A stretch of DNA of 32,818 bases from Desulfuromonadaceae bacterium (GTDB taxonomy: Bacteria; Desulfobacterota; Desulfuromonadia; Desulfuromonadales; BM103): positions 1 to 32,818 of the forward strand of contig JBFYXI010000019.1 in the NCBI GenBank assembly GCA_041310635.1. The letters are read 5' to 3'. Of this stretch, positions 1 to 24,071 are shown piece by piece. How positions within the stretch are numbered: the stretch's first letter is position 1; each line of letters opens with the position of its first letter. The notes below the pieces were generated by a model. That model saw nothing but the letters and a program-made list of their open reading frames with translations, searched no databases and was not told where the DNA came from. The position numbers and the translations under genes were made by a program.

Positions 1-233
1 CCAAAACACCGGAAATCGGCGAAGTCGACGGTCCTCTCCTTGGATTTTCTGACAAAAACCGACGGAACTGCGTTCCTAATCCTTTTGAAGAACCAACGTC
101 AGGACTTTTGCAAGAGGCTCATAGAGTAGAAAATTCTGACTGGAAGTCAATAGCCGACTCAACGCGGCGGCACCGATGACAACCACCGTGCTGCTGTGCT
201 AAGCTATCCAGAAAATCGGCAAAGAGGTGGAAC

Positions 234-548
234 GTGGCGCGTGCGCCCGCCAGTGGCCGGACCCAGCCGGCAACCGGCACTCATGAACAGACCCGTCAGC
301 CGCCGTTGTTCAAGGTGCTGATGCATAACGATGACTACACGACCATGGAGTTTGTGGTCGAGGTCCTGCAGGCCGTTTTCCGTCTGCCGCCCACCGAAGC
401 CAACCGGATCATGCTGCACATCCATTTCAAAGGGGTCGGCATGTGCGGGGTGTTCCCCTTTGAAGTGGCCGAGACCAAGGTCGCCCGCGTGCATGCCATG
501 GCCCGCGGACAGGGCTATCCCCTGCGCTGCACCCTCGACAAAGTCTGA
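234..548 (+). CDS. clpS: ATP-dependent Clp protease adaptor ClpS
   Basis: The translation contains the ClpS core FKVLMHNDDYTTMEFVVEVL...ANRIMLHIHFKGVGMCGVFPFEVAETK. A GAGG-type RBS sits about 5 nt upstream of GTG 234. clpA follows 5 nt downstream. Confidence 0.9.
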   Translation: MARAPASGRTQPATGTHEQTRQPPLFKVLMHNDDYTTMEFVVEVLQAVFRLPPTEANRIMLHIHFKGVGMCGVFPFEVAETKVARVHAMARGQGYPLRCTLDKV

Positions 549-553
549 TTGCC

Positions 554-2802
<2,249 letters not shown>

Positions 2803-2806
<4 letters not shown>

Positions 2807-2880
2807 GGCCTGGGGTCTGGGGACTGGAAGAACCGAATGCGGAAGAGATTTTGCCAGCCCCCAGCAACCAGCCTCTAGCC
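2803..2880. repeat. Heptamer-phased imperfect palindrome: CTAGGGC CTGGGGT CTGGGGA CTGG, a spacer, then TTTTGCCAGCCCCCAGCAACCAGCCTCTAG
   Basis: The left arm (2803-2827) is largely complementary to the right arm (2855-2878). The first CTAG contains the clpA stop codon. The element shares the TTTTGCCAG motif with the other elements. Confidence 0.75.
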
Positions 2881-2889
2881 ACCGCTTTT

Positions 2890-3585
2890 ATGCCCATCTT
2901 CCGCCTGACCGACCAACTGGCCTTCCCCGATCCGCGACTGGCCAGCGCCGAGGGGTTGCTGGCGGTCGGCGGCGACCTCGCCCCGGAGCGCCTGCTGCTG
3001 GCCTACAGCCTCGGCATCTTCCCTTGGTACGGTCCTGGCGAGCCGCCCCTGTGGTGGTCCCCCGATCCCCGCTGCGTCATCTTCCCGGCGACGGTGCACG
3101 TGTCCCGGCGCCTGGCCCGGACCTTGCGGCAAGGGCGCTTTGCCGTCACGTGCAACCACGCCTTCGACGAGGTGATTGCGGCCTGCGCCGATCTCAGGGC
3201 TGGCCACGCCGGGGGAACCTGGCTGGTGCCGGAGATGCGAAGTGCCTACCGGGAGCTGCATCGGCTCGGCTACGCGCATTCGGTAGAGGTCTGGCGGCAC
3301 GGCCAGTTGGCCGGCGGGCTTTACGGCGTGGCGGTCGGCCGTTTTTTCTTCGGCGAATCGATGTTCCACCTCCTGACCGACGCCTCGAAGGTTGCTCTGG
3401 TCAAGCTTTGCCGGCACCTGACCGAGAGGGATTTCGAGCTGCTCGACTGCCAGGTGCCGAACCCGCACCTGCTGCGCATGGGGGCAAGGCTCCTGCCGCG
3501 CAGCGAATTCCTCGAGCGCCTGCACCGGGCCGGGCTGGCCCTGTCGGGCCGGCTGCCGCGACTGCTGCTGCCGGCAACCCTTTAG
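2890..3585 (+). CDS. aat: Leucyl/phenylalanyl-tRNA--protein transferase
   Basis: It carries the motifs GIFPWY and LWWSPDPR. The N-terminus from ATG 2890 (MPIFRLTDQLAFPDPR...) aligns with the known Aat start. The longer ORF from TTG 2851 would translate the repeat arm. Confidence 0.9.
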   Translation: MPIFRLTDQLAFPDPRLASAEGLLAVGGDLAPERLLLAYSLGIFPWYGPGEPPLWWSPDPRCVIFPATVHVSRRLARTLRQGRFAVTCNHAFDEVIAACADLRAGHAGGTWLVPEMRSAYRELHRLGYAHSVEVWRHGQLAGGLYGVAVGRFFFGESMFHLLTDASKVALVKLCRHLTERDFELLDCQVPNPHLLRMGARLLPRSEFLERLHRAGLALSGRLPRLLLPATL

Positions 3586-3587
3586 TG

Positions 3588-3623
3588 TGAAAAAAGGCGG
3601 CCGCGCTGCAAAGCGCGACCGCC
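3588..3623 (-). terminator. Rho-independent terminator of the cytochrome gene
   Basis: On the minus strand GGCGGTCGCGC pairs with GCGCGGCCGCC (11 bp, one mismatch), followed by TTTTTT (plus-strand A run 3590-3595). It lies just downstream of the cytochrome stop at 3651. Confidence 0.7.
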
Positions 3624-3650
3624 GTCGTGGTCCACGGAACAAGGATCGGC

Positions 3651-4226
3651 CTACATCTCGTGACAGGTTCCGCAGGTGTCCTCGTCCTTGACGCCGAAGG
3701 CGGTGCTGCCGTCATGGCAGGCTCCGCAGGAGGCGCCCCCCTCCATGTCGGTCATGCTGGCCTTGTTGACCCCCTTCTGGGCCTTGAAAGTGTCCGGGTG
3801 GCAGGCATCACAGCCGAAGGCCGCGGTGTGCACCTCATGGCTGAAGAGCGCCTTGCCGGCATCGGTTTCATAGACGACATCGCCATTGCCGTGGCACCTG
3901 GCGCAGTCGCCTTTCACTGAAAAGGCTTTCTTGCCGTTGTGGCAGGCCCCGCAGGAAGCCCCGCGTTCCATGGCTTGCATGGTGACGTTCTTGTTGCCGC
4001 GCTTCTTCTCGTAGAGCTTCGGGTGGCAGGAGCCGCAGCCGAACATTCCGCCATGGGCACTGTGGCTGAAGGGAACTTTGCCGACGGCCTTGGTCTGCAG
4101 GTTGACGATATCCACGATCCCTGCCATCCCTCCCATATCCCCCATCCCGCCCATGCCGACGGCATACAGAGCGGATGGCAGGGCGATCAGCAGCGTAACG
4201 ACCATCACGATCCCGAGCCTTGACAT
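3651..4226 (-). CDS. Secreted hexahaem c-type cytochrome with two c7/c3-like trihaem domains
   Basis: It has a signal peptide (MSRLGIVMVVTLLIALPSALYA) and six CXXCH motifs (CGSCH, CGACH, CARCH, CDACH, CGACH, CGTCH). The internal duplication reads FSHxxH...CxxCH...M..ME.GASCGACH...CxxCH. Confidence 0.9.
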   Translation of the reverse strand: MSRLGIVMVVTLLIALPSALYAVGMGGMGDMGGMAGIVDIVNLQTKAVGKVPFSHSAHGGMFGCGSCHPKLYEKKRGNKNVTMQAMERGASCGACHNGKKAFSVKGDCARCHGNGDVVYETDAGKALFSHEVHTAAFGCDACHPDTFKAQKGVNKASMTDMEGGASCGACHDGSTAFGVKDEDTCGTCHEM

Positions 4227-4258
4227 AGCGTTTCTCCCTGGGCAATGGTTTGGCGGTG

Positions 4259-4287
4259 ATTATACCTCGTTTGCCGAATAATGCCAA
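4259..4287 (-). promoter_or_regulatory. Sigma70-type promoter TTGGCA-17-TATAAT for the cytochrome gene
   Basis: Read on the minus strand: -35 TTGGCA (plus 4282-4287), a 17-nt spacer and a perfect -10 TATAAT (plus 4259-4264). It sits about 30 nt upstream of the start codon. Confidence 0.6.
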
Positions 4288-4380
4288 TTCTGCCAAGCTG
4301 TCCGTCTCCGGGTCGGCCAGGCCGGCCGCGGCGCTTTGCCGGCAGCGTGCTTTCCTGACCAGAAAATGGCGTGCTGAGTA

Positions 4381-5511
4381 ATGGACCATCGCTGTGTGGA
4401 ACAATTTTATGCCGTCGCCGCGCCAGGGCTGGAGCAAGTCTGTGCCGACGAACTGGCTGCCCTCGGCATGGTCCCGGCCGGGATCGGCCCGGGAGGGGTC
4501 GAGTTCACCGGCCGATTGGCCGACCTGTACCGGGCCAACCTGCAGTTGCGTACCGCCAGTCGGGTTGTGGTGCGCTTCGGCAGGTTCCGCTGCCGATCGT
4601 TCCCCGACCTTTATCGCCAGGCGGTCCGATTGCCCTGGGGAAGCTTCGTTCGTGCCGGGGCCCCGCTGCACTGCCGGGTCACTTGTCGCAACTCGCGTTT
4701 GATGCATACCGGCCGAGTGGCGGAGACGCTGACGGCTGCCGCCGACCACGCCTTGGGGCGACAGCCGTTGCCCGCCGCAGAGGGACAACTGGTGCTGGCC
4801 AGGATCGTCGACGATGTGGCCGAGCTGTCGATCGACAGCTCCGGAGAGCTGCTCCACCGGCGCGGCTGTCGCACCAACGTGGCGGTTGCGCCGCTGCGCG
4901 AGACCCTGGCGGCCGGCATCCTGCTGCTGCTCGGCTGGGACGGCTCCGGGGCGCTGGCCGACCCACTGTGCGGCACCGGCACCATGCTCCTCGAAGGCGC
5001 CCTGCTGGCGGCCAACCGTGCTCCCGGCCTGCAACGGGAATTTGCTTTCATGTCTTGGCCGGGATATCGCTCCGGCCTGTGGGCTCAGCTGTGCGCCGTG
5101 GCCCGGCAAGCCGAGCGCCCCTGCCCGTCAGCGATTTCCGGCGGGGATGCCGATGCCGGGGCGCTGGCCGCCGCCCGTGCCAACCTGGAACGAGCCGGGT
5201 TGGCCGAGGTTGTCACGCTGCAACAGCGGCTGTTGTCCAGTCAGCCGGTCCACACAGGGCAGGGCCTGGTCGTCTGCAACCCCCCGTATGGCAAGCGGCT
5301 GACGACGGCGGTGCCGTTGGCGGACTATTTCGCCGAGCTCGGCGGGGAGTTGCGGCGGGCCTATCCGGGATGGCGCAAGGCCTTGATCTGCCCTGATGTG
5401 TCCCTGGCCCGCGCCACCGGTCTGCCGCTGCGCGAAGTGGCGCAACTGGACAACGGTGGGTTGCGGGTCGGGCTGTATGCGACGGTTGAGGCGCAGGGCC
5501 GCTGTTCCTGA
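4381..5511 (+). CDS. THUMP-domain class I SAM-dependent RNA methyltransferase (COG0116/RlmL-like)
   Basis: The SAM motif I is LADPLCGTGTMLLEGA and the catalytic motif IV is VVCNPPYGKRL. The N-terminal region is THUMP-like. Confidence 0.8.
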   Translation: MDHRCVEQFYAVAAPGLEQVCADELAALGMVPAGIGPGGVEFTGRLADLYRANLQLRTASRVVVRFGRFRCRSFPDLYRQAVRLPWGSFVRAGAPLHCRVTCRNSRLMHTGRVAETLTAAADHALGRQPLPAAEGQLVLARIVDDVAELSIDSSGELLHRRGCRTNVAVAPLRETLAAGILLLLGWDGSGALADPLCGTGTMLLEGALLAANRAPGLQREFAFMSWPGYRSGLWAQLCAVARQAERPCPSAISGGDADAGALAAARANLERAGLAEVVTLQQRLLSSQPVHTGQGLVVCNPPYGKRLTTAVPLADYFAELGGELRRAYPGWRKALICPDVSLARATGLPLREVAQLDNGGLRVGLYATVEAQGRCS

Positions 5512-5518
5512 TTTCTGC

Positions 5519-5547
5519 TTGCGTTGCCCCGAAAATTCGGCTATATG
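5519..5547 (+). promoter_or_regulatory. Candidate sigma70 promoter TTGCGT-17-TATATG upstream of rpsU
   Basis: Hexamers with 17-nt spacing lie about 55 nt upstream of the rpsU start. Confidence 0.35.
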
Positions 5548-5603
5548 TCACATTCCCCGTGAGTCTGGGGGCTATTGTAGAGTGAAAGCGAGGTGAGGTC
5601 AGA

Positions 5604-5798
5604 GTGGAGATCCAGGTGGTCGACAACAATGTCGAAAAGGCCATTCGGGTTCTCAAGCGCAAGCTGCAGCAGGAAGGGCTATTCCGCGAGATGAAGCAGC
5701 GGAAGTACTACGAAAAGCCGAGCGTGAAACGTAAGCGCAAGGAGAAAGAAGCCCAGCGGCGACTGCGCAAGAAGATGCGCTTGATGCGTACCGACTGA
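5604..5798 (+). CDS. rpsU: 30S ribosomal protein S21
   Basis: 64 aa and basic. The sequence EKAIRVLKRKLQQEGLFREMKQRKYYEKPSVKRKRK is the classic S21 sequence. The start is GTG with a GAGGTGAGG RBS. Confidence 0.95.
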   Translation: MEIQVVDNNVEKAIRVLKRKLQQEGLFREMKQRKYYEKPSVKRKRKEKEAQRRLRKKMRLMRTD

Positions 5799-5818
5799 TC
5801 ACCCGCAGTGCATGAAGA

Positions 5819-5864
5819 ACGCAGCAGGCCGGCCCTTGGAGGGCGGCCCTGCTGCGTTTGTTGG
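5819..5864 (+). terminator. Rho-independent terminator after rpsU
   Basis: ACGCAGCAGGCCGGCCC pairs with GGGCGGCCCTGCTGCGT (about 16 bp, one bulge). The loop is TTGGA and TTGTTGG follows. Confidence 0.7.
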
Positions 5865-5885
5865 CTCGTTATTGGCATGCGGTAT

Positions 5886-5951
5886 CTAGTGTCTGGTTGA
5901 TTGAGACCTGACTGCAGGTTAATGTCCCAGCAACCAGCAACCAGCAACCAG
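5886..5951. repeat. Heptamer-phased element: CTAGTGT CTGGTTG, a central mini-hairpin ACCTG/CAGGT, then (CCAGCAA)3 CCAG
   Basis: The unit family matches that at 15068-15256 and 16582-16658. The CTGGTTG and CAACCAG arms are complementary. Confidence 0.7.
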
Positions 5952-6037
5952 ATTGCTCTGGACTTGCCCCCGCCCAAGCTGGTATGAAAAAGTGTTCACT
6001 CTGGCGCTGAACCGATCCCCGCAGGAGGTCTGTCAAC

Positions 6038-7012
6038 ATGGGCAGCACGGTGCATTATTCAGAGCTTGGCCTGGCCAACACCCGCGACATGTTCGCCAAG
6101 GCGATGGCCGGCGGCTATGCCATCCCGGCCTACAATTTCAACAACCTCGAGCAACTCCAGGCGATCATCACCGCCTGCGCCGAGACCGGCTCGCCGGTCA
6201 TTGTCCAGGTCAGCAAAGGGGCCCGCGACTACGCCAACCAGACCATGCTGCGCTACATGGCCATGGGTGCGGTGGCGATGGCCCGCGAGATGGGGTCCAA
6301 CATCCCGATCTGTCTGCACCTCGACCATGGCGACTCCTTCGAGCTGTGCAAGTCGTGCGTCGATTCCGGCTTCTCATCGGTGATGATCGACGGTTCGCAT
6401 CTGCCCTACGAGGACAACATCAAGCTGACCCGCCAGGTGGTCGAGTATGCCCACCAATTCGACGTCTGCGTCGAAGGGGAGCTCGGCGTGCTGGCCGGGA
6501 TCGAGGACGAGGTTTCCGCCGAGCATTCGACCTACACCCGCCCCGAGGAGGTCGAGGATTTCGTCAGGAAGACCGGGGTCGATTCCCTGGCGATCTCCAT
6601 CGGCACCTCCCACGGTGCCTACAAGTTCAAGCCAGGGGCGGCAGTGCCGCCGCTGCGCTTCGACATCCTCGAGGAGATCGAGCAGCGCATTCCCGGTTTT
6701 CCCATCGTCCTGCATGGCGCCTCCAGCGTGGTGCAGGAGTATGTGGCGCTGATCAACCAGTATGGTGGCAGGATGGAAGGGGCGGTCGGCATCCCCGAGG
6801 ATCAACTGCGCCGGGCCGCCGCCAGCGCGGTGTGCAAGATCAACATCGACTCCGACGGCCGCCTGGTGGTGACCGCCAAGGTGCGCGAGTACCTGGCCAA
6901 CCACCCCGGCGAATTTGACCCGCGCAAATATCTGGGCGCCGCCCGCAAGGAACTGGTCAAGCTGCTCAAGGAGAAGAACGCCACGGTTTTGGGGAGTGCA
7001 GGCAAGGCGTAA
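6038..7012 (+). CDS. fba: Class II fructose-1,6-bisphosphate aldolase
   Basis: 324 aa. It carries YAIPAYNFNNLEQLQAII, HLDHG and VEGELG, the metal-dependent class II FBA signatures. Confidence 0.93.
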   Translation: MGSTVHYSELGLANTRDMFAKAMAGGYAIPAYNFNNLEQLQAIITACAETGSPVIVQVSKGARDYANQTMLRYMAMGAVAMAREMGSNIPICLHLDHGDSFELCKSCVDSGFSSVMIDGSHLPYEDNIKLTRQVVEYAHQFDVCVEGELGVLAGIEDEVSAEHSTYTRPEEVEDFVRKTGVDSLAISIGTSHGAYKFKPGAAVPPLRFDILEEIEQRIPGFPIVLHGASSVVQEYVALINQYGGRMEGAVGIPEDQLRRAAASAVCKINIDSDGRLVVTAKVREYLANHPGEFDPRKYLGAARKELVKLLKEKNATVLGSAGKA

Positions 7013-7067
7013 TCCTGTGTGATACGTCACCCGAGTCAGATCCAGTTTTCCCGGATTTTCGTGAAGC

Positions 7068-7106
7068 AAGAGCCGCCCTTCGACAGCCGGGGCGGCTCTT
7101 TTGTTT
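7068..7106 (+). terminator. Rho-independent terminator after fba
   Basis: A perfect 11-bp stem forms between AAGAGCCGCCC (7068-7078) and GGGCGGCTCTT (7090-7100), followed by TTGTTT. It lies between the convergent fba and lipoprotein genes. Confidence 0.8.
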
Positions 7107-7130
7107 ATGCTGCGCTCGGGAGCGAGATCC

Positions 7131-8378
7131 TTATGGTTTGTGCGGCTCACCCGTCGGCAGGGGCTGAAATTCCACTTCGAGGTTGAGCGTCTCGCCGACG
7201 CGCTCCACGGTGAGGGTCGAGCGGTCGCCCTTCTGCCGCTGGCCGATGGCATAGATCAGATCGAAATTCTCGACGATCGGCTCCCCGTCGATGGCCAGGA
7301 TGAAGTCGCCGGTCTGCACGCCGCCACGATCTGCCGACGAGCCGGGAACGACCGCCAGCACCGCCACCCTGCCGTCCTGCTCTTCCATGCGCACGCCGAG
7401 CTTGACCCGATCCCCGGGCAGATCCTCGTAGGCGGTGAACACCACATAATCGTAGGGCGCCATGGGGAACGCGGGCATCTGCACGTGCATGCGCTGGCCG
7501 AGCCGGTGTTCCGGGAATTCGACTTCTTCGCTGCCGATCAGCGCATAGGAGACCGGCAGGCGGCGGAAAACCCGGCGTGGGATGCCGAAGCCGTAGCGGA
7601 CGTGGTGACTGCCGGCCAGCACCACCATGCGTTGACTGTCGTCGGGGAACGACTGCAGGTGGCGGACCACGCTTTCGGCCATGGCTTCGTCCCACAGGGT
7701 CTGGACCCGCTGGAAGCCGGCCAGATGGCTGCCTCCGGCAGAATGACCGCCAAAGACCGCTTCGACCATGGCCGTCTGGTAGGGATCGCTCATGTCCAGC
7801 TCCGGCAGCTGATGGTGTTCCTCGGCGGCCAATTCGGCCGGGGGTTTTTGACTGATAGCTTTGACCAGTGCTTTTTCGGCATTGAGTGCGACCACCGGGA
7901 TCTTCTGCTCGCGGGCAAAGTGCAGCAGGTCCCGGTAGAAGGCAAAATCCAGGCTCCAGACCGAATACCAGTCCGCTTCCTTGAGGAACTGCTTTTCACT
8001 CAGTTCGCCGGCGACCCAGCGGTCGAGCACCGGCTGCTCGGCACGGGTGAGCATCTCCATGCCGAGACTGACCCGTCCCGGCCAGCGTTCGGCCATGGTC
8101 TTGAGTACGGCCAACTGGACACGGTGAGCGGCCGGGTTGTCATGGGTCTCGCCGACATAGACGATGCGCGCATCGGTGGCTGCCGCCAGCATCTGCGCCT
8201 CGGTCACTGGCGTGCCGGTCGGGATGTGCATGATCTCGCCGACGCGCGGCGGCTGGGGTGGCGGGTAGGGTAGCTCGGGGCTGCCGATGGGCGCCTGGCT
8301 CATGGTACAGGCGCTCAGGAGCAGCAGGGCCAGGCCGAGGGCTGCGGCCGGCGTAAAAATGCGCAAGGTATAGTGCAT
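7131..8378 (-). CDS. ChaN-family (Tiki/haem-binding-like) lipoprotein with C-terminal PDZ domain
   Basis: Starting from ATG 8378, the protein has a signal peptide with a lipobox (LLLLSAC). It also has the ChaN-like motif IVYVGETHDNPAAH and a C-terminal PDZ-like segment GVQTGDFILAIDGEPI. The 53 aa further upstream in the ORF track look non-coding. Confidence 0.75.
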   Translation of the reverse strand: MHYTLRIFTPAAALGLALLLLSACTMSQAPIGSPELPYPPPQPPRVGEIMHIPTGTPVTEAQMLAAATDARIVYVGETHDNPAAHRVQLAVLKTMAERWPGRVSLGMEMLTRAEQPVLDRWVAGELSEKQFLKEADWYSVWSLDFAFYRDLLHFAREQKIPVVALNAEKALVKAISQKPPAELAAEEHHQLPELDMSDPYQTAMVEAVFGGHSAGGSHLAGFQRVQTLWDEAMAESVVRHLQSFPDDSQRMVVLAGSHHVRYGFGIPRRVFRRLPVSYALIGSEEVEFPEHRLGQRMHVQMPAFPMAPYDYVVFTAYEDLPGDRVKLGVRMEEQDGRVAVLAVVPGSSADRGGVQTGDFILAIDGEPIVENFDLIYAIGQRQKGDRSTLTVERVGETLNLEVEFQPLPTGEPHKP

Positions 8379-8558
8379 GACAACTCCGGAGTTTGGATGT
8401 GGTGCCGACGGCGAATCGTCAGGGGCATGTGGTGAATTAGAGCATGAGCGGCCTCTTCGGCTCAAGGGGGAAGCGGCCGGACCTTCCCCCCCCGACCGCA
8501 CGGCAACCGCCTGCCTCGAAAAAATACCGACCGGCACCGCTGGCCACTGAATTTCCTG

Positions 8559-8586
8559 TTGACAAGCGCCGCCGGAACGCTAGAAT
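8559..8586 (+). promoter_or_regulatory. Sigma70-type promoter TTGACA-16-TAGAAT for the XRE-cupin regulator
   Basis: The -35 is a consensus TTGACA at 8559-8564 and the -10 is TAGAAT at 8581-8586. GAATT-containing motifs flank both hexamers. Confidence 0.55.
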
Positions 8587-8637
8587 TCGCATCTGACTTT
8601 TTTCTTAGCAGCACTAAACAACAGAGGGGCGTGACCC

Positions 8638-9183
8638 GTGAAAATCGGTGATCGACTGAAGCGGCTCAGAATCATCAACTCGCTGACCCAGGAAGAGCTG
8701 GCCAGTCGGGCGGATCTGACCAAGGGCTACATTTCGCAGGTGGAAAACGATACCGCTTGCCCGTCGATTGCCACTCTCAAGGACATTCTCGACGTCTTTG
8801 GGGTGAGCATGCAGGAATTCTTCACCGAGCCGACCGATACCGAGGTGGTGTTCGGCAGCGACGCCCGGGTGCAGTCGACCGCGGACGGGGATGCGGTGAA
8901 AGTTGAACTACTGGTCCCCGGCGCCCAGAATCGCGAGATGGACCCGGCGCTGGTGACTCTGGCACCGGGCGCCGAGATGGAGCTGCAGGATGTGCATGAG
9001 GGGGAAGAATTCGGCTATGTCCTGCGAGGCCGCATTCAGGTGCGACTCGACGACAAGTGCTACAAGGTGGAGCGGGACGAGTGCTTCTTCTTCACCTCAG
9101 ACCGTCGTCACGCGGTGAAAAATATCGGTCGCGGGCCGGCGAAGATTTTGTGGGTGGTCACCCCACCGACCTTCGACTATTGA
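8638..9183 (+). CDS. XRE-family HTH transcriptional regulator with C-terminal cupin domain (PuuR-like architecture)
   Basis: The N-terminal HTH is LTQEELASRADLTKGYISQVEN. The C-terminal cupin segment is HEGEEFGYVLRGRIQV...FFFTSDRRHAVKNIG. The start is GTG with an AGAGGGG RBS. Confidence 0.85.
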   Translation: MKIGDRLKRLRIINSLTQEELASRADLTKGYISQVENDTACPSIATLKDILDVFGVSMQEFFTEPTDTEVVFGSDARVQSTADGDAVKVELLVPGAQNREMDPALVTLAPGAEMELQDVHEGEEFGYVLRGRIQVRLDDKCYKVERDECFFFTSDRRHAVKNIGRGPAKILWVVTPPTFDY

Positions 9184-9192
9184 CTGTGTATC

Positions 9193-9259
9193 CAGAATTC
9201 AGGAACCGGTAAACATAACGGCTTTTTTCTGAATTCCGGATGCCGAACCTGAATTCCGG
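9193..9259 (+). promoter_or_regulatory. Three copies of a CTGAATTC(C/T)GG motif upstream of the polyamine genes (candidate operator)
   Basis: CCAGAATTCAGG lies at 9192-9203 in inverted orientation. CTGAATTCCGG lies at 9229-9239 and again at 9249-9259, as direct copies 20 nt apart. Confidence 0.4.
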
Positions 9260-9292
9260 GGCGGGTGATTCCCCGGGGAAGGAGATCATAAG

Positions 9293-10492
9293 ATGAGCAA
9301 GGTTCTGATCATCGGGGCCGGCGGGGTCGGCCGGGTCGTCGTGCACAAGTGCGCCCAGCGCAAGGATATCTTCACCGCCATCACGCTGGCGTCGCGAACC
9401 AAGAGCAAGTGCGATGCCATTGCCGCCGAAATAAGACATTTTCCGGTGCAGACCGCGCAGGTCGATGCCGACAACGTGCCGGAACTGGCGGCGCTGATCA
9501 AGCGGGAGCAGCCCCGCCTGGTGATTAACGTGGCGCTTCCCTACCAGGACCTGACCATCATGGACGCCTGCCTGGCGACCGGGGTCGATTACCTCGACAC
9601 GGCCAACTACGAGCCCCATGATACCGCCAAATTCGAGTACAGCTGGCAGTGGGCCTACCACGACCGCTTCCGCGACCAGGGGATCATGGCCCTGCTCGGC
9701 AGCGGCTTCGACCCGGGGGTGACCAACGTCTACACGGCCCTGGCGGCGAAGCAGTACCTCGACGTGATCGAAGAGCTCGATATCATCGATGCCAACGCCG
9801 GCAGTCACGGCCAGCCCTTCGCCACCAACTTCAACCCGGAGATCAACATCCGCGAGGTGACCGCGCCCTGCCGCCACTGGGAAGACGGCCGCTGGGTGGA
9901 GACCCCGGCGCTGACGACCAAGCGCAGCTTCGACTTCCCCGGGGGGGTCGGGCCGATGAACATCTATCGCCTCTACCACGAGGAGATGGAATCGCTCGTC
10001 AAGCACCTCCCGACCATCAGGAAGGCCCAGTTCTGGATGACCTTCTCCGACAACTACCTCAAGCACCTCGAGGTGCTGCAGAATGTCGGCATGACCCGCA
10101 TCGACGAGGTCGAGTTCCAAGGGCAGAAGATCGTGCCGATCCAGTTTCTCAAGGCGCTCCTTCCCGACCCGGGGAGCCTGGGGCCGCTGACCAAGGGGAA
10201 GACCTGCATCGGCGTCATCGCCCGCGGGCGGAAAGACGGCCAGCGCAAGCAGGTCTACATCTACAACATCTGCGACCACGAGGCCTGCTATGCTGAGACC
10301 AACTCCCAGGCGATCAGCTACACCACCGGCGTGCCGGCAGTGGTCGGCGGCATCATGATGCTGACCGGCAAGTGGCATGCGCCGGGGGTGTGGAACATGG
10401 AACAGTTCGATCCGGAACCGTTCCTCGAGGTGCTCGGCCCCATGGGCCTGCCCACTGTTGTCGTTGACGGCGGCGACTGGCCGGAACTGTGA
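9293..10492 (+). CDS. Carboxy(nor)spermidine dehydrogenase/synthase (saccharopine dehydrogenase family)
   Basis: 399 aa. The N-terminal Rossmann motif is VLIIGAGGVGRVV. The length and overall sequence are typical of CASDH/CANSDH, and it sits next to the cognate decarboxylase. Confidence 0.88.
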   Translation: MSKVLIIGAGGVGRVVVHKCAQRKDIFTAITLASRTKSKCDAIAAEIRHFPVQTAQVDADNVPELAALIKREQPRLVINVALPYQDLTIMDACLATGVDYLDTANYEPHDTAKFEYSWQWAYHDRFRDQGIMALLGSGFDPGVTNVYTALAAKQYLDVIEELDIIDANAGSHGQPFATNFNPEINIREVTAPCRHWEDGRWVETPALTTKRSFDFPGGVGPMNIYRLYHEEMESLVKHLPTIRKAQFWMTFSDNYLKHLEVLQNVGMTRIDEVEFQGQKIVPIQFLKALLPDPGSLGPLTKGKTCIGVIARGRKDGQRKQVYIYNICDHEACYAETNSQAISYTTGVPAVVGGIMMLTGKWHAPGVWNMEQFDPEPFLEVLGPMGLPTVVVDGGDWPEL

Positions 10493-10508
10493 GTCAAGCA
10501 AAAACGAT

Positions 10509-10710
10509 TTGACGCGGAGACGCTGCGGCGCTGAGAAAGTCTTTTGAGGGTCAAGGAACAAAGAACGAGGAATAGGTTTTTGCCCTAGGATCTTGAACCT
10601 AGGCTCTTGAACCTAGGACCTTGAACCTAGGATCTTGAACCTTGGACCTTGGACCTTGAACCTTGGGCCTGCCAGTGGATTTCCTCCGCGCCTCTGCGCC
10701 TCTGCGTCAA
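10509..10710. repeat. Composite element: outer inverted repeat TTGACGCGGAGACGC / GCCTCTGCGTCAA enclosing GGTTTTTGCC and a 13-unit heptamer array
   Basis: The outer arms at 10509-10523 and 10698-10710 are complementary (11/13). The inner array is at 10584-10674. 8-mer units GCGCCTCT x2 lie at 10689-10704. Confidence 0.75.
10584..10674. repeat. Tandem heptamer array of 13 units: CCTAGGA TCTTGAA CCTAGGC TCTTGAA CCTAGGA CCTTGAA CCTAGGA TCTTGAA CCTTGGA CCTTGGA CCTTGAA CCTTGGG CCTGCCA
   Basis: The units were counted directly in the sequence. The 7-nt phase is strict over 91 nt. Confidence 0.9.
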
Positions 10711-10726
10711 ATAAAGGGCTTAAAAT

Positions 10727-11881
<1,155 letters not shown>

Positions 11882-11894
11882 CAAGGCGGAAATT

Positions 11895-11988
11895 ACAGAA
11901 TACAGAATACAGAATACAGAATAAAATCATTCAATCTTCGGCAACCTTGGCCGAAGATTCTGAATTCTGACTCCTGAATTCTGTATTC
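11895..11988. repeat. Heptamer-phased palindrome: (ACAGAAT)4, a perfect 10-bp central hairpin, then CTGAATT CTGACTC CTGAATT CTGTATT
   Basis: The left array is at 11895-11922. The central stem pairs AATCTTCGGC (11933-11942) with GCCGAAGATT (11950-11959). The right array at 11960-11987 is roughly complementary to the left array. Confidence 0.8.
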
Positions 11989-12006
11989 GCCTGAAAGGTA
12001 CTGAGA

Positions 12007-13914
<1,908 letters not shown>

Positions 13915-13930
13915 GGCGGTTACTAGTGTC

Positions 13931-15066
13931 TAGTTGCAAAATTAAACGATATAATATGGACTTCTTTCACCCTCTTCGCGAAAGGAGTCGCTTATGCCGA
14001 GAAAAGCTCCCCCACCGCCGTGCAGCGAGAAGGACCGCCAGACACTCAGGGAATGGGCAAGCAGTCGAAGCATGGAGGTACGCCTTGTTGAACGTGCCCG
14101 GAGCATCTGCAAACTCCTTGACGGAGACTCCGTCAGTAAAGTCGCCAAGGACCTTAATGTGCGCCAGAACACGGTGATTGAATGGCGTGACCGGTTCGCA
14201 GATCAAGGCATTGCCGGACTGTACGATCGTCCGCGTTCGGGTAAGCCCCCGAAATATGATCAGGAGTTCCACTCGCAAGTTCTGAAAACCCTGGAACTTC
14301 CGCCACCACCTGGTCAGGCATGCTGGGACGGGCCGGCGCTTGCCAAACATCTTGGGGCTTCAGATGATGCTGTCTGGCGTGTGCTGCGCAAACACAATAT
14401 CGGTCTTTCCCGACAACGAAGTTGGTGTGTCAGCACCGATCCCGAGTTTGCACCGAAGGCAGCCGATATTATCGGACTCTATTTGGCGCCACCCGAGAAA
14501 GCCTTAGTCATTTCGGTTGACGAGAAGACAAGTATCCAAGCGTTGGAGCGCACCAAGGGTTATGTTTGTACCAGTAGCGGCAAAATCGTCCAAGGCCTCA
14601 AGAGCACCTACAAGCGGCATGGAACCCTCAACCTGTTTGCGGCGCTGAACGTGGCAACGGGCGCCATCCATGCGCAGACAACCAAGCTCAAGAGACGGGT
14701 TGATTTTCTGGCCTTCATGGATCAGGTCCTCTCAGAACTTCCGGATAGCGATCAGAGAGAAATTCACGTGATCCTGGACAATTACTGCATTCACAAGCGC
14801 AACGATGAATGGCTTGCGCGGCATCCGAACATTACGTTCCACTTTACGCCAACTTCTGCAAGCTGGCTAAATCAAGTGGAGATATGGTTTGGCATTCTCT
14901 CCCGTAAGGCCTTGAATAATGTAAGCTTTCAGAGTGTTGACCAACTGCGTGCGGCCGTTGAGGCATTTATCGACGCCTATCAACCCAACGCCAAGCCCTT
15001 TGTATGGCGCAAGCGCGAGGTCAAGGGCTCGCAATTAAGAAACACTATCGAAAACTTTAGCAATTA
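13931..15066 (+). mobile_element. IS630-family insertion sequence with TA target-site duplication
   Basis: The imperfect terminal inverted repeats are GTTGCAAAATTAAACGATA (from 13933) and the reverse complement of TATCGAAAACTTTAGCAAT (ending 15064). TA flanks the element at 13931-13932 and 15065-15066. The segment is visibly more AT-rich than its surroundings. Confidence 0.75.
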
Positions 15067-15067
15067 G
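13994..15067 (+). CDS. IS630-family transposase (HTH plus DDE_3)
   Basis: 357 aa and intact. It has an N-terminal winged-HTH region and a DDE region (VISVDEKTSIQALER ... ILDNYCIHK ... FTPTSASWLNQVEIWF). Confidence 0.9.
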   Translation: MPRKAPPPPCSEKDRQTLREWASSRSMEVRLVERARSICKLLDGDSVSKVAKDLNVRQNTVIEWRDRFADQGIAGLYDRPRSGKPPKYDQEFHSQVLKTLELPPPPGQACWDGPALAKHLGASDDAVWRVLRKHNIGLSRQRSWCVSTDPEFAPKAADIIGLYLAPPEKALVISVDEKTSIQALERTKGYVCTSSGKIVQGLKSTYKRHGTLNLFAALNVATGAIHAQTTKLKRRVDFLAFMDQVLSELPDSDQREIHVILDNYCIHKRNDEWLARHPNITFHFTPTSASWLNQVEIWFGILSRKALNNVSFQSVDQLRAAVEAFIDAYQPNAKPFVWRKREVKGSQLRNTIENFSN

Positions 15068-15111
15068 ACGCTGGTTGCTGGTTGCGGTTGCTGGCAAAAC
15101 CAAGAACAACG

Positions 15112-15148
15112 GGAAAAGGGGTTCCTTAGCTTGAGGAACCCCTTTTCC
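15112..15148. terminator. Perfect 14-bp palindromic stem-loop (candidate bidirectional terminator)
   Basis: GGAAAAGGGGTTCC (15112-15125) pairs with GGAACCCCTTTTCC (15135-15148) around a 9-nt loop. The A4/T4 runs lie inside the stem and there is no separate U-tract. Confidence 0.45.
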
Positions 15149-15165
15149 TGTGACAACGTCTTCAG

Positions 15166-15256
15166 CAACCAGCAACCAGCAACCAGCAACCAGCAACCAG
15201 CAACCAGCAACCAGCAACCAGCAACCAGCAACCAGCAACCAGCAACCAGCAACCAG
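15166..15256. repeat. Perfect tandem heptanucleotide repeat (CAACCAG)13
   Basis: Thirteen uninterrupted copies were counted (91 nt). The tract ends 3 nt from the thiC stop codon. Confidence 0.95.
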
Positions 15257-15259
15257 GTT

Positions 15260-16573
15260 TCAGCCCCCAGCCCCCGCTCTGGTCTTCTCCTGCCCCCGCT
15301 CGTTCATGACCTTATAAGCGCAGAACGCTCCGCACATGGTGCAGGCGCCGTGCTCCGCGTCGACCCCCGACTCGGCGCGCAGGCGGCGGGCCTTGGCCGG
15401 GTCGAGGGCCAGGGCGAACTGGCCTTCCCAGTCGAGCTGCTTGCGGCAGCGGGCCATGGCGTTGTCTTTCTCGATGGCCCCCGGCACCCCCTTGACAATG
15501 TCGGCGGCGTGGGCGGCGATGCGGCTGGCGATCACCCCCTCGTGAACATCCTCGACGGTCGGTAGGCGCAGGTGCTCGCTGGGGGTGACGTAGCAGAGGA
15601 AGTCGGCTCCGGCCGCGGCCGCGAGGGCTCCGCCGATGGCGCAGGTGATGTGGTCGTAGCCGGGGGCGATGTCGGTCACCAGCGGGCCGAGCACGTAGAA
15701 CGGCGCGCCGTGGCAAAGGCGCTTCTGCAACTGGATGTTGGTCCGGATCTGGTTGAGCGGCACATGACCAGGACCCTCGATCATCACCTGCACCCCGGCC
15801 GCCCAGGCCCGCTCGGTCAATTCGCCGAGCACGATCAGTTCATGAATCTGCGCCCGGTCGGTGGCGTCGGCCAGGCACCCCGGGCGGAAGCCGTCGCCCA
15901 GGGACAGGACCGCGTCGTACGGCTTGACGATCTCCAGGAGGCGGTCGTACTGCTCGTAGAGGGGGTTTTCCTTCTGGTTGTGGGTCATCCACTCGATGGT
16001 GAAGGAGCCGCCGCGGGAGACCACCTCCATGATCCGCCCCTCGCGCTCCATCCGCTCCACGGTGGCGCGGGTCACCCCGCAGTGGACGGTGATGAAATCG
16101 ACGCCGTCATCGAGGTGCTTGACGATCCCTGCGAAGATCTCGTCGGCAGTCATGTCAACCATGGCCTTCTGCTTGCGCATGACCGTATCGACCGCCGCCT
16201 GGTAGAGTGGCACGCTGCCGATGCAGGCTTTGGTTTCGGCAATCACCGCCCGGCGGATCTCATCGATCGGCCCGCCGGTGGAAAGATCCATGATCGCGTC
16301 CGCCCCGGCGGCCACCGCCACGCGGGCCTTCTCCAGCTCCTTGTCGATGCTGGTATCGTCGCGGCTGGTGCCGATGTTGGCATTGACCTTGGTGCGCAAT
16401 CCCAGGCCGACGGCCAGCGGCGTGCCGTGTGTGTGCTTGCGGTTGCGGCAGATGACCGCAGTGCCCTCGGCGATGCGCTGGCGCAAGGTTTCGGCAGCAA
16501 CCCCCTCAAGCGCGGCAGCCTGCTCCATCAGTTCGGTGACGATACCCTGGCGGGCAGCTTCGATTGTGGTCAT
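15260..16573 (-). CDS. thiC: Phosphomethylpyrimidine synthase ThiC (radical SAM)
   Basis: 437 aa. The sequence is ThiC-like throughout and ends in the cluster motif CTMCGAFCAYK. Confidence 0.95.
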   Translation of the reverse strand: MTTIEAARQGIVTELMEQAAALEGVAAETLRQRIAEGTAVICRNRKHTHGTPLAVGLGLRTKVNANIGTSRDDTSIDKELEKARVAVAAGADAIMDLSTGGPIDEIRRAVIAETKACIGSVPLYQAAVDTVMRKQKAMVDMTADEIFAGIVKHLDDGVDFITVHCGVTRATVERMEREGRIMEVVSRGGSFTIEWMTHNQKENPLYEQYDRLLEIVKPYDAVLSLGDGFRPGCLADATDRAQIHELIVLGELTERAWAAGVQVMIEGPGHVPLNQIRTNIQLQKRLCHGAPFYVLGPLVTDIAPGYDHITCAIGGALAAAAGADFLCYVTPSEHLRLPTVEDVHEGVIASRIAAHAADIVKGVPGAIEKDNAMARCRKQLDWEGQFALALDPAKARRLRAESGVDAEHGACTMCGAFCAYKVMNERGQEKTRAGAGG

Positions 16574-16581
16574 GGTTTCCT

Positions 16582-16654
16582 CTTGGTTTCTGGTTTCTAG
16601 TGGCTGGTTTCTGGTTCTTGGTTCTTGGTTTCTGGTTTTGCCAGCAACCAGTAA

Positions 16655-16658
<4 letters not shown>
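16582..16658. repeat. Heptamer-phased element inside the thiamine operon
   Basis: CTTGGTT TCTGGTT TCTAGTG GCTGGTT TCTGGTT CTTGGTT CTTGGTT TCTGGTTTTGCCAG CAACCAG TAACTAG. It fills the whole thiED-thiC spacer. The terminal CTAG contains the thiED stop codon. Confidence 0.85.
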
Positions 16659-18085
<1,427 letters not shown>

Positions 18086-18096
18086 CTTTTCTCCCC

Positions 18097-18140
18097 GCAA
18101 AAAACAAAGAATCGCCGGGCTGGTTCGGCCACGGCGATTC
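18097..18140 (-). terminator. Intrinsic terminator forming the expression platform of the TPP riboswitch
   Basis: On the minus strand GAATCGCCG pairs with CGGCGATTC, extended by GGC/GCC pairs. TTTGTTTTTT follows, immediately before the thiDE RBS. Confidence 0.7.
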
Positions 18141-18167
18141 CCGAAGGTTTCGATCGTTGCTGACCAG

Positions 18168-18262
18168 ACCGCTTCCCTACGCCGGCATGACCCGGATCAG
18201 GTTCGAGGGGTCGTCCCGCCCGCGCGGAACTCTCAGTAGGAAAGGCCTACTCCCCCAGCGGT
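18168..18262 (-). promoter_or_regulatory. TPP (THI-box) riboswitch aptamer
   Basis: The minus strand reads ACCGCUGGGGGAG...CUGAGAG...ACCCCUCGAACCUGAUCCGGGUCAUGCCGGCGUAGGGAAGCGGU. This matches the conserved CUGAGA and ACCUGAUCUGG..CCAGCGUAGGGAA cores, with P1 pairing ACCGC/GCGGU. Confidence 0.9.
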
Positions 18263-18393
18263 AATGGCTTGTTGCGGCTGATCGGCCCGTCTTTATCGGC
18301 AACGCGCCCACAGCATTCAAACAGCTTATAAAGGTTGCCGCCACCCTGTCAACCTTTGCGTGCCATCGGAGGCGGTCCGGTCCCAGCAGGCTC

Positions 18394-18422
18394 TTTACAC
18401 CTTGCCGGCCACGTGGTTAAAT
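18394..18422 (+). promoter_or_regulatory. Candidate sigma70 promoter TTTACA-17-TTAAAT for alr
   Basis: Hexamers with 17-nt spacing lie about 40 nt upstream of ATG 18461. Confidence 0.45.
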
Positions 18423-18460
18423 GCCGCTGCCACTCCCTGCCGCGAGGTTCTGCATCCGCC

Positions 18461-19600
18461 ATGACATCTCTCCCGCTGACCCGCCCCACCCGTGTCGAAA
18501 TCGATTGTGGCGCCCTGCGCTTCAACCTGGCCAAAGTGCGCCAGACCGTCGGTTCCGGCTGCGAAATTCTCGCCGTCGTCAAGGCTGATGCCTATGGCCA
18601 TGGCGCCTCGGGAGTGGCCCCGGTGCTGGCCGCCGCCGGCGCCGACCAGTTCGGTGTCGCCCTGGTGGGAGAAGGGGAGGCCCTGCGCCGTTACGGAATC
18701 CGTCAGCCCATCGTCGTGCTGGGCGGGGTCTTCCCCGGCGAAGAACCGATGGTGCTCGAACACGACCTGCAGCCAGTACTCTACGACCTGGACACCGCCC
18801 GTCGCCTCTCTGCCGCCGCTGGTCATGCCGGCCGCCGGATTGCGTGTCATCTCAAGGTCGACACGGGGATGGGTCGCCTCGGCTTCCGCCCCGAAATGCT
18901 GTCGGAAGTTCTCGCTGTCCTGAGCGGCTTACCGGAATTGGAGCTGCGCGGCCTGGCCAGCCACCTGGCGCTGGCCGACGAACCGGAGCAGCCGTTCACC
19001 ACGGCACAGCTGGCAAAGTTTCGGCGCGTGGGCGAACAGGTGCGCGCCGCCGGCTTCACCCCCCGATACACCCATATCGCCAACAGTGCCGCCATCTACA
19101 GTCGGGAGTTGGATGGCTGCAACCTGGTGCGTCCCGGCATCTCTCTCTACGGCGGACTGACCGGCACGCCGTTCGAGGAAATCGTGCCGCAGCGACCGGT
19201 CATGCGCTTCGTCAGCCAGGTGGCCCAGCTCAAGGAGGTTCCGGCCGGAGAGGGGATTTCCTATGCCCACCGTTTCGTCACGCCGCGTCCCTCGCTGATC
19301 GCCGCCGTCCCCGTCGGCTACGCCGACGGTTACAATCGCCTGCTGACCAACCGCGGCGAAGTGCTGATCCGCGGTTGTCGCGCACCGGTCGCGGGGACGG
19401 TCTGCATGGACTGGATCCTGGTCGACGTCACGGCGATCCGCGGCGTAACGGTAGGCGACCAGGTGACGCTGCTCGGTTGCGACGGTGACGAGTGCGTCAG
19501 CGCCCGGGAGTGGGCTGAGAAAATCGGCACCATCACCTATGAGGTGTTCTGCCAGATCAGCAAGCGCGTACCACGGATTTTCGTAAATCGCGAGGGGTGA
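18461..19600 (+). CDS. alr: Alanine racemase
   Basis: From ATG 18461 the protein reads MTSLPLTRPTRVEIDCGALRFNL. It has the PLP-lysine motif AVVKADAYGHG and the C-terminal motif YEVFC. The upstream 42 codons in the ORF track are unlikely to be coding. Confidence 0.92.
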   Translation: MTSLPLTRPTRVEIDCGALRFNLAKVRQTVGSGCEILAVVKADAYGHGASGVAPVLAAAGADQFGVALVGEGEALRRYGIRQPIVVLGGVFPGEEPMVLEHDLQPVLYDLDTARRLSAAAGHAGRRIACHLKVDTGMGRLGFRPEMLSEVLAVLSGLPELELRGLASHLALADEPEQPFTTAQLAKFRRVGEQVRAAGFTPRYTHIANSAAIYSRELDGCNLVRPGISLYGGLTGTPFEEIVPQRPVMRFVSQVAQLKEVPAGEGISYAHRFVTPRPSLIAAVPVGYADGYNRLLTNRGEVLIRGCRAPVAGTVCMDWILVDVTAIRGVTVGDQVTLLGCDGDECVSAREWAEKIGTITYEVFCQISKRVPRIFVNREG

Positions 19601-19614
19601 GGAGTACAGGTGTG

Positions 19615-24003: not shown

Positions 24004-24040
24004 AGGCTGGGGGCTGGTTTTGCCAGTCCCTAACCCCTAG
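24000..24040. repeat. Heptamer-phased hairpin: CTAGAGG CTGGGGG CTGG TTTTG CCAGTCC CTAACCC CTAG
   Basis: The arms at 24000-24017 and 24023-24040 are complementary at about 14/18 around the conserved GGTTTTGCCAG apex. The first CTAG contains the purD stop codon. Confidence 0.8.
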
Positions 24041-24071
24041 TCCCCCGCCCAGGACTTAAAAGGAGCATATC

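Follow-up and report, generated by a model that had tools for sequence, protein, structure and literature searches.

Why should three housekeeping genes end in the same six bases, and why should the last of those bases open a repeat? The question is raised by a contig of a Desulfuromonadaceae bacterium (GenBank assembly GCA_041310635.1, contig JBFYXI010000019.1), which was analysed over its whole length of 32,818 bases and is called the window below. The contig apparently belongs to a metagenome-assembled genome, so that its repeat copy numbers are possibly mis-assembled or imprecise. Within it the genes clpA, purD and thiDE (a ThiE-ThiD fusion) all close with GGC TAG, and thiC runs into a long array of seven-base units. 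The explanation that we consider probable is that these repeats are heptanucleotide tandem arrays of the long simple sequence repeat (SSR) class, similar to the short tandemly repeated repetitive (STRR) sequences, often set as inverted pairs round a non-conserved spacer or a terminator, and that they overwrite gene ends. Our results indicate that such repeats are primarily a hypermutable process kept within bounds by selection, and that this process rewrites the last residues and the stop codons of housekeeping proteins.

Gene ends inside heptamer arrays

The identities of clpA, thiC, purD and the ThiE+ThiD fusion are backed by NCBIfam equivalog models, and these family profiles stop a few residues short of each of the four gene stops. 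The clpA gene closes with TTC GGG GGC TAG, its stop lying at 2804-2806, and the DNA continues as GGC CTGGGGT CTGGGGA CTGG; both the final two glycine codons (2798-2803) and the TAG fall within the array. The same holds for the final lysine and glycine codons and the stop of purD (AAG GGC TAG, stop at 24001-24003, then AGG CTGGGGG CTGG). In thiDE, ACT GGG GGC TAG (stop at 16655-16657) is followed by TTA CTGGTTG CTGG; the element holds the final two glycine codons and the TAG, and the threonine codon ahead of them contributes, as its third base, the first C of the array. At each of these three stops an array of CTGGNNN heptamers opens with a variant unit, CTAG. The original prediction had stated that the three genes share GGC TAG, with the TAG drawn from the CTAG that opens the repeat, and this proved exact at every coordinate. 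Its assignment of the thiC tail to two GGGGGCT heptamers, in seven-base register with (CTGGTTG)13, was likewise exact on reading. The gene ends GCG GGG GCT GGG GGC TGA, and the array, GGGGGCT GGGGGCT GAAACCT (GGTTGCT)13 in a single register, encodes Gly-Ala-Gly-Gly and the TGA stop (15260-15262). All four stops sit in a unit that is one G-to-A change off the CTGG core, either CTAG or CTGA.

The pattern GGCTAGNNNCTGGNNNCTGG, which is GGCTAG plus two units, occurs four times in the window, compared with 0.00 expected from 100 shuffles. Three of the matches are in-frame gene stops; the remaining one, the clpA element's right arm, faces the 5' end of aat. The pattern CTGGNNNCTGG is found 26 times, where 2.1 are expected. 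Of the 12 TAG stops of the window 3 follow GGC, while in relatives 7 of 222 do so (binomial p = 0.006), and the word CTAG occurs just 17 times in 32.8 kb.

Some details of these and similar ends may be recorded here. A fifth glycine-rich TAG end before CTGG belongs to ccsA (26159-27010), which closes with GGC GGG GGG TAG TCTGG (26999-27020; ...SYGGG) and may represent a decayed array unit. The right arm of the clpA element holds a further TAG (2876-2878), which lies 72 bases beyond the clpA stop and shares its frame; were the clpA stop read through, the protein would gain 23 residues and end at the mirror CTAG. By chance alone, such agreement of frame would arise in one case out of three. The purD gene (22730-24003) is broken by a single-base deletion near 23208-23222, reading ...VARSVAEVRR and then VRDMLSGN... 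in another frame. Relatives are uninterrupted at this point (...EEANAAVRDMLSG), and the NCBI entry is a 256-residue C-terminal fragment only (P0241); the frameshift is either an assembly error or the sign of a pseudogene.

Do these last residues belong to the proteins or to the repeats? We compared the window with loci or contigs of relatives or metagenomes, which are designated by L-numbers (L001, L208 and so on). Relatives of ClpA were collected by homologue search, a look-up of the exact ClpA protein having given no match; in the species collection, the ThiC closest to that of the window is 94% identical. Among 120 close ClpA homologues, most have 748 residues and end ...L[DNT]F[SQ]Y[SR]; relatives end ...FSYS/R/P/A after 748-749 residues, and close ones that lack the array end ...FSYP/A, as compared to FNFGG in the window. 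The ending ...LTFN[YF]GG, at 750 residues, is restricted to the window and five relatives (89-100% identical). All DNA of this GG sub-clade that we compared (L201-L204, L209 and L210) reads GGG GGC TAG and then enters a CTGG- or CCGG-type hairpin element. ClpA ending in GG was seen only together with GGG GGC TAG and an array, while L205-L207, whose ClpA is 89% identical, end TAC CCC TGA or TAC GCC TGA and have a spacer of 43-46 bases with no element.

PurD behaves in the same manner. Its usual end is ...KAL-x-R, at 423 residues; the window has ...KALTKG, and four relatives (87-88% identity) have ...KALTRG. In the TRG relatives L211-L213 the gene closes with GGC TAG GGG CTCGGGG CTGGGGG CTGG, followed further on by (CCCAGTC)3-4. 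In L214 purD ends GAT AAA TAA (...KALDK) with no element, and the length of the purD spacer is alike with and without one. PurD ending in T[KR]G was seen only together with GGC TAG and an array. For ThiDE, L214 and L002 end ...VL[RS]DEC and L001 ends ...ALKT; the window's ...AVTGG is shorter and different. The ThiC of L208, 97% identical to that of the window, ends ...GEEKKAG, encoded by AAG GCG GGC TGA, and is followed by a single GTGGTTG and no array, compared with ...GQEKTRAGAGG and 13 CTGGTTG units in the window. The lone GTGGTTG may stand for the seed of such an array.

Because close array-free relatives end differently, the terminal residues and stops are lineage-specific and travel with the repeats. 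In the original prediction, the repeats were proposed to insert at the very 3' ends of genes, or to expand into them, and to remodel the C-termini. The orthologue comparison for ClpA, PurD, ThiDE and ThiC supports this view, in that relatives devoid of the arrays have neither the same terminal residues nor the same stop position.

How could a repeat come to write the end of a protein? An array that spreads or homogenises toward a gene would overwrite its last dispensable codons. Since 7 is not a multiple of 3, a frame entering the array would meet all three unit phases within 21 bases, and with CTGG one G-to-A transition away from CTAG and CTGA, a stop would be met or would arise within a few codons. 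The open reading frame (ORF) would then end inside the array, and the unit would dictate the residues. GGC TAG would recur because the unit GGGGGCT gives Gly-Gly or Ala-Gly at the ORF end. Purifying selection would set the limit, with arrays halting at constrained C-termini and invading unconstrained tails and a domain linker. The complementarity of paired arms is probably upheld by intrastrand template switching.

Unit turnover, selective limits and the question of mobility

Other units occupy the same ends in relatives. At the end of ThiC the unit is GTAGCGA in L013 (...VASSE), and GGGACGC or GTAACGC in L017 and L007. At the end of ThiDE it is GTGAACA in L015 (...AVNSEQ), GTGATCC in L026 and GGGTGAA in L074; L208, the locus with the 97% identical ThiC, has an octamer there (GTTGAATC / GTTGAACG; ThiDE ...LLNR). 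In L006, L014 and L017 an AGGTAAA array begins at the TAA of purD. The link that the original prediction drew between gene ends and GGCTAG holds in the window, but it is not peculiar to that word, as other heptamers act alike in relatives. Since the units at one site differ between relatives with 97% identical proteins, unit turnover is much faster than protein divergence.

Change in unit number can be followed in three contigs, L211, L212 and L213, which are 99.5-99.6% identical. Their sole indels over 11.7-13 kb measure 32, 48 and 7 bases, and all lie in arrays: the 32- and 48-base indels in (CGACTCAA)n, and the 7-base indel (TCCCCAG) in the right arm of the purD element. The octamer array (CGACTCAA)n occupies the purH-purD spacer (7001-7209 of L211) with 12, 6 and 8 copies in L211, L212 and L213, respectively; its inverted partner is GTTGAGT/GTTAAGT. 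Three points are thus shown: arrays occupy the DNA directly downstream of genes; they change by whole units, gained or lost, in the manner characteristic of replication slippage; and the sequence of their units is replaced far more quickly than that of the genes beside them.

Where do arrays stop, and where do they enter? PurH ends in five residues that do not vary among 40 orthologues; the array begins past the stop in six cases and overlaps it in one. Inside the gene at 19597-20916, the array at 20126-20154 lies exactly between the domains Raco_middle (residues 20-172) and RACo_C_ter (residues 194-438). In 19 of the 35 orthologues compared, this linker has 9-12 bases and mostly reads xPGT. 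In the window and in 9 of the 35 it consists of 27-72 bases of heptamer units, all in frame and free of stops. These units differ in sequence among relatives, save that L045 and L054 share one, and in L069 the linker array is an inverted pair within the coding sequence. A short AGCCCCC-type period-7 stretch is also present at 19625-19644, near the RACo-like N-terminus and right after a 4-base overlap with the alanine racemase gene.

To what extent are the arrays general? We scored period-7 arrays in a census of the window and 80 loci of relatives, 1.27 Mb in total, with gene calls from a custom codon-usage caller. Non-coding arrays number 56 at period 7, and 2, 3 and 4 at periods 5, 10 and 11; in the relatives, period-7 arrays are about 15-fold commoner than the control periods, and arrays of periods 6, 9 and 12 are mostly coding. 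A called gene stop lies inside 16 of the 77 period-7 arrays. Arrays overlap the 3' ends of genes in 18 of 62 facings, as opposed to 5 of 62 for 5' ends (p = 0.005). The three cases with a start inside an array resemble mis-called upstream starts. At 3' ends the arrays lie a median of 16 bases from the gene, and at 5' ends 56.5. We also scanned metagenomes with CTAG followed by three CTGG units, CTAG(NNNCTGG)3, a query that shows generality and frame preference, not frequencies. Among the matches listed, the contigs span 36-71% G+C. Of the 124 arms listed, 28 supply with their TAG the stop of an ORF of 100 codons or more, compared with 12 in each of the other two frames (p = 0.002). Seven of 10 sampled ORFs that end at such a site carry Pfam domains, which come from unrelated families, and four of these domains reach to within 26 residues of the stop. 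The 3'-end bias and the frame preference in metagenomes agree with arrays entering the 3' ends of genes. On the metagenome contig L110, an ABC1 kinase-like ORF (986-1846) ends at a CTAG array unit and matches positions 1-119 of a 244-position profile; here the array may have truncated the gene rather than trimmed its tail.

Several observations weigh against local arrays overwriting gene ends. A detectable array overlaps the stop in just 6 of 80 ThiC and 6 of 75 ThiDE orthologue ends (about 8%), so most of the variability of these tails is not attributable to arrays; the idea that arrays encode most of it in relatives was scaled back after this scored count. The four CTGG-type arms of the window share their GGCTAG ends, up to 13 identical bases (GGCTAGAGGCTGG) and a TTTTG/CAAAA loop edge, and thereby look like copies of one dispersed element, not like four independent local expansions. 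Presence and absence among relatives of 87-89% identity could equally mean insertion. We infer the movement of arrays into genes from outgroups, by which the direction of change between array and gene end was deduced, and the mechanism suggested for arm complementarity is conjectural.

Could the repeats then be a small non-autonomous mobile element, similar to a miniature inverted-repeat transposable element (MITE) or to a REPIN, a hairpin-forming doublet of repetitive extragenic palindromic (REP) sequences? Its inverted arms would be built of heptamers, and it would insert at CTAG or TAG and hence prefer TAG stops. This would account for the match of four window arms to a pattern expected 0.00 times, for the 13-base word common to the left arm of purD and the right arm of clpA, and for the fact that the clpA and purD elements are each bounded by CTAG on either side. 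CTAG being rare, TAG stops preceded by C would make up a large share of the targets. The presence of the element in one sub-clade and its absence from 87-89% identical relatives would fit as well, as would an IS630-family element that, from our reading of the sequence, is seated in a CTAG unit. We nevertheless regard a mobile element as unlikely. There is no conserved core, and spacers cannot be aligned even between orthologous copies (window, L201, L203 and L209). The elements measure anything from about 49-50 to over 200 bases, and even near-identical contigs differ in unit number. In L205, L206 and L214 the element-free sites lack CTAG and the stops are TGA or TAA, and the similar length of the purD spacer with and without the element fits replacement rather than insertion. 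Quite different units are found at the same sites in relatives, about half of the arrays are devoid of an inverted partner, and the only transposases in the window belong to the DDE_3 (IS630-like) and Mutator families, whose ends are unrelated to the arrays.

The IS630-family element (DDE_3 and a helix-turn-helix domain) spans about 13931-15066, with its transposase at 13994-15067, and appears to sit in the TA of the CTAG unit. On the same reading, removal of about 13933-15064 together with one TA would rebuild TTACTAG TGTCTAG ACGCTGG TTGCTGG in seven-base register, and the transposase stop (AAT TAG, 15065-15067) would be formed from the duplicated TA and the flanking G. A search for inverted repeats at the ends of this element gave nothing convincing.

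Hairpins and the other arrays of the window

Are the hairpins formed by paired arrays selected for their position at the stop codon? Predicted folding energies are -46.3 kcal/mol for the clpA element (2796-2884, z -3.9), -33.4 kcal/mol for purD (z -4.4) and -21.8 kcal/mol for thiDE, with z values of -2.5 to -4.4, and in all three the base of the stem takes in the last glycine codon and the stop. All three elements are intercistronic (clpA-aat, purD-purE and thiDE-thiC), the next start being 66-84 bases away. In the operons clpS-clpA-aat, thiDE-thiC and purH-purD-purE, such a stem could be a selected RNA device that begins at the stop codon and shields the upstream cistron from 3' exonucleases, or modulates termination and reinitiation, like the REP sequences and bacterial interspersed mosaic elements (BIMEs) of enterobacteria. 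Orthologous elements retain their hairpin despite drift of the arms (-36 to -55 kcal/mol), and in L209, L201, L211 and L213 folding favours the sense over the antisense strand by 3-8 kcal/mol. Liang, Rudd and Deutscher reportedly found in 2015 that E. coli REP hairpins within about 15 bases of a stop reduce expression of the upstream gene.

The original prediction had offered, as its alternative, that the hairpin is selected to start exactly at the stop. We found no support for this, and consider an RNA device of either kind improbable. The stop lies anywhere from -2 to +26 bases from the start of the array. An inverted tandem partner within 160 bases exists for 36 of 77 arrays (12 of 77 for a control word), leaving 41 of 77 unpaired, and arrays also lie in frame within a gene. 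Close relatives with 87-89% identical proteins have no hairpin at the same sites (-8 to -11 kcal/mol, z about 0). Selection on the sense-strand RNA, as judged by G·U asymmetry, was considered and dropped: across 33 co-directional regions the sense strand folds better in 20 and the antisense strand in 13, with a mean difference of +0.6 kcal/mol. For the window elements the antisense fold is usually at least as good as the sense fold, and it is better in two of the three GGC TAG elements (thiDE: -21.8 sense, -26.1 antisense). No Rfam family covers the elements, the sole match in the window being the ordinary thiamine pyrophosphate (TPP) riboswitch listed in Table 1. A scan of positions 1-20,000 called no terminator-like site at the clpA or thiDE element, and in the purD element, which lies outside that scan, no U tract follows the stem as the sequence is read.

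A related proposal is that the arrays, rather than being passive products of slippage, arise and persist as inverted pairs through a mechanism restricted to the lineage, and are retained because the stop-based hairpin couples termination to the stability of the mRNA 3' end or to expression of the next cistron. We think this quite improbable; if it were true, the process would, as a by-product, keep supplying new C-terminal tails and inter-domain linkers in several bacterial phyla. A role for the hairpins, for instance as intercistronic stabilisers of mRNA, would be secondary to the overwriting of gene ends by arrays and is unproven.

Many intergenic regions of the window bear period-7 arrays, with units such as CTGGGGN, CTGGTTG, TACAGAA/TTCTGAA, CCTTGAA and the GACGCGGAGAC type, mostly as two inverted arms flanking a spacer (Table 1). 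Tandem Repeats Finder reports period 7 at 2798-2827 (4.3 copies), 5927-5951, 11894-11923, 11957-11988, 15163-15256 (13.4 copies, 100% matches), 15261-15275, 16584-16638 and 20126-20154. The reverse complement of the right arm of the clpA-aat element reads GGCTAG AGG CTGGTTG CTGGGGG CTGG, and the ATG of aat lies at 2890. The rpsU-fba element has an orthologous copy in L206. The arrays at 11894-11988 fold at -37.7 and -42.6 kcal/mol (z -7.4 and -8.4). Downstream of thiC, the minus-strand hairpin at 15112-15148 qualifies as an intrinsic terminator and is flanked by the 13-unit array and by the distal arm at 15068-15110.

Table 1. Genes, arrays and related features of the window, with positions counted from its first base.
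Feature	Position	Strand	Description
clpA	554-2806	+	NCBIfam TIGR02639 covers residues 3-737 of 750
clpA-aat element, left arm	2798-2827	+	GGGGGCT AGGGCCT GGGGTCT GGGGACT GG (= CTAGGGC CTGGGGT CTGGGGA CTGG); pattern match 2801-2820
clpA-aat element, spacer (loop)	2828-2853	+	ends TTTTG; non-conserved
clpA-aat element, right arm	2854-2880	+	CCAGCCC CCAGCAA CCAGCCT CTAGCC; minus-strand pattern match 2861-2880
rpsU-fba element	5886-5951	+	same CTGG family; CTAGTGT CTGGTTG ... (CCAGCAA)3 CCAG; touches no stop codon
composite paired arrays	10507-10712	+	CCTAGGATCTTGAA/CCTTGAA units within GACGCGGAGAC.../...CTCTGCGTC arms; begin 15 bases past the stop of the upstream gene
paired arrays round an inner hairpin	11894-11988	+	(TACAGAA)4 and ATTCTGA ATTCTGA CTCCTGA ATTCTGT
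outer units of the split array	13920-13933	+	TTACTAG TGTCTAG; array begins 5 bases past the speA stop; split by the IS630-family element (sequence reading)
rest of the IS630-split array, with loop	15068-15110	+	ACG CTGGTTG CTGGTTG CGGTTG CTGG CAAAA CCAAGAACAAC; distal arm relative to thiC
terminator-like hairpin	15112-15148	-	GGAAAAGGGGTTCC...GGAACCCCTTTTCC; between the arrays downstream of thiC
array adjoining and entering thiC	15163-15275	-	GGGGGCT GGGGGCT GAAACCT (GGTTGCT)13
thiC	15260-16573	-	NCBIfam NF009895 covers residues 1-431 of 437
thiDE-thiC intercistronic element	16577-16665	-	CTGGGGG CTAGTTA CTGGTTG CTGG - CAAAA - CCAGAAA CCAAGAA ...
thiDE (ThiE-ThiD fusion)	16655-18100	-	NCBIfam
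TPP riboswitch upstream of thiDE-thiC	18157-18266	-	Rfam, 81.7 bits; ordinary
in-frame array in the RACo linker	20126-20154	+	CCCCTCA-type heptamers; gene 19597-20916
purD, C-terminal part	23224-24003	+	N-terminal part from 22730, in another frame
purD-purE element	23995-24043	+	AAGGGCT AGAGGCT GGGGGCT GG - TTTTG - CCAGTCC CTAACCC CTAGTCC

Comparison with known repeat systems

REP, BIME and REPIN sequences are intergenic, often intercistronic or at 3' ends, and exist in many copies; their inverted doublets form long hairpins, which can stabilise upstream mRNA. A REP is an imperfect palindrome with a conserved 5' GTAG, mobilised by a REP-associated tyrosine transposase (RAYT). The window elements resemble them in their intercistronic or 3'-end placement, their hairpins and their shared ends. 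Unlike REPs, their arms are direct heptamer arrays that are not self-complementary and have CTAG as the outer end, and unit number varies. No RAYT is in view among the transposases of the 32.8-kb contig, all of the DDE_3 and Mutator families. MITEs, such as the Rickettsia palindromic elements or Chunjie of Geobacter uraniireducens, are short stretches of inverted-repeat DNA that are tolerated in operons or in frame and can alter protein ends. Their length is fixed and their interior conserved, and they come with target-site duplications. The window elements, in contrast, range from about 49 to more than 200 bases, with spacers that cannot be aligned between orthologous copies. CTAG does flank the clpA and purD elements in the way of a target duplication, but CTAG is also a variant unit, and element-free sites have TGA or TAA without CTAG.

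Catalogues of heptamer repeats go back to 1990 for cyanobacteria and were later extended to Xanthomonas, Beggiatoaceae and Geobacter; the origin and function of these repeats are unsettled. Published cases comprise the STRR sequences of heterocystous cyanobacteria, GGGGA(C/T)T in Nostoc, GGGAATC in Xanthomonas, where repeat length varies between species (Rehm et al.), and TAACTGA in Beggiatoaceae. In the latter, 13-14 sets of TAACTGA overlap the stop of the upstream ORF, and forward repeats give stops in all three frames (MacGregor 2015, PMC4679880). Repeats of this sort close to stop codons, or right on them, are on record in Xanthomonas and Nostoc as well. The arrays described here share with these STRR-like SSRs the seven-base head-to-tail unit, the mainly intergenic location and the strong over-representation relative to other periods. 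They too are placed near or over the upstream stop and are polymorphic in unit number, as shown in the relatives L211-L213; the window unit CTGGGGA is even the same word as the GGGGACT of Nostoc. They differ in that the host belongs to the Desulfuromonadales, that many units coexist in 33 kb and that about half of the arrays form inverted, hairpin-forming pairs. Earlier papers counted distances, whereas here orthologues were compared and arrays were found in a domain linker.

A further precedent comes from the same order. Aklujkar et al. 2009 (PMC2700814) described in G. metallireducens paired sites with the consensus GTTGCTYN (class 1), TCTCCGTS[Y] (class 2) and MTYCTGA (class 3), termed them 'global regulator binding sites', and conjectured binding by IHF/HU-type proteins or a role as regulatory RNA. 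As in the window, these class 1-3 sites consist of tandem hepta- or octanucleotides and come in pairs, one site on each strand, with a varying distance between the two. The array ATTCTGA ATTCTGA CTCCTGA ATTCTGT at 11957-11988 matches the class 3 consensus. The window heptamer CTGGTTG (GTTGCTG) differs from the class 1 octamer GTTGCTYN, and a class 2-like TCTCTGCGTCTCCGCGTC stands at 21044-21061, compared with the published consensus only. The same paper reports GGGACCG four-repeat elements both inside and between genes, and insertion sequences at a fixed distance from the sites, a placement that the IS630-family element in the window array resembles. The term 'stop codon' occurs 0 times in its text, which reports no link to stops or C-termini. 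Might the paired arrays of the window, likewise, be DNA sites for a nucleoid-associated or regulatory protein, with the overlap of gene ends incidental? The class 3 match, the GTTGCTG-type and TCTCTGCG/TCTCCGCG-type arrays of the window and a hairpin potential that is equal on both strands, as fits a feature of the DNA, point in this direction. The proposal in PMC2700814 is itself a conjecture, however; a unit that differs completely at one site between close relatives is hard to square with a sequence-specific binder, and unit numbers are polymorphic. We therefore consider such binding sites very improbable as an explanation of the gene ends.

For annotation, the overwriting of gene ends by heptamer arrays implies that terminal residues and stops beside such arrays are unstable and prone to assembly error. 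Isolates of G. metallireducens and Desulfuromonas are systems in which effects of the hairpins can be probed. The kind of repeat and its proximity to stops are already published. New here are the replacement of terminal residues and stops at the level of orthologues, the turnover of units at fixed sites, indels confined to units, the contrast offered by PurH, and the arrays within a domain linker.

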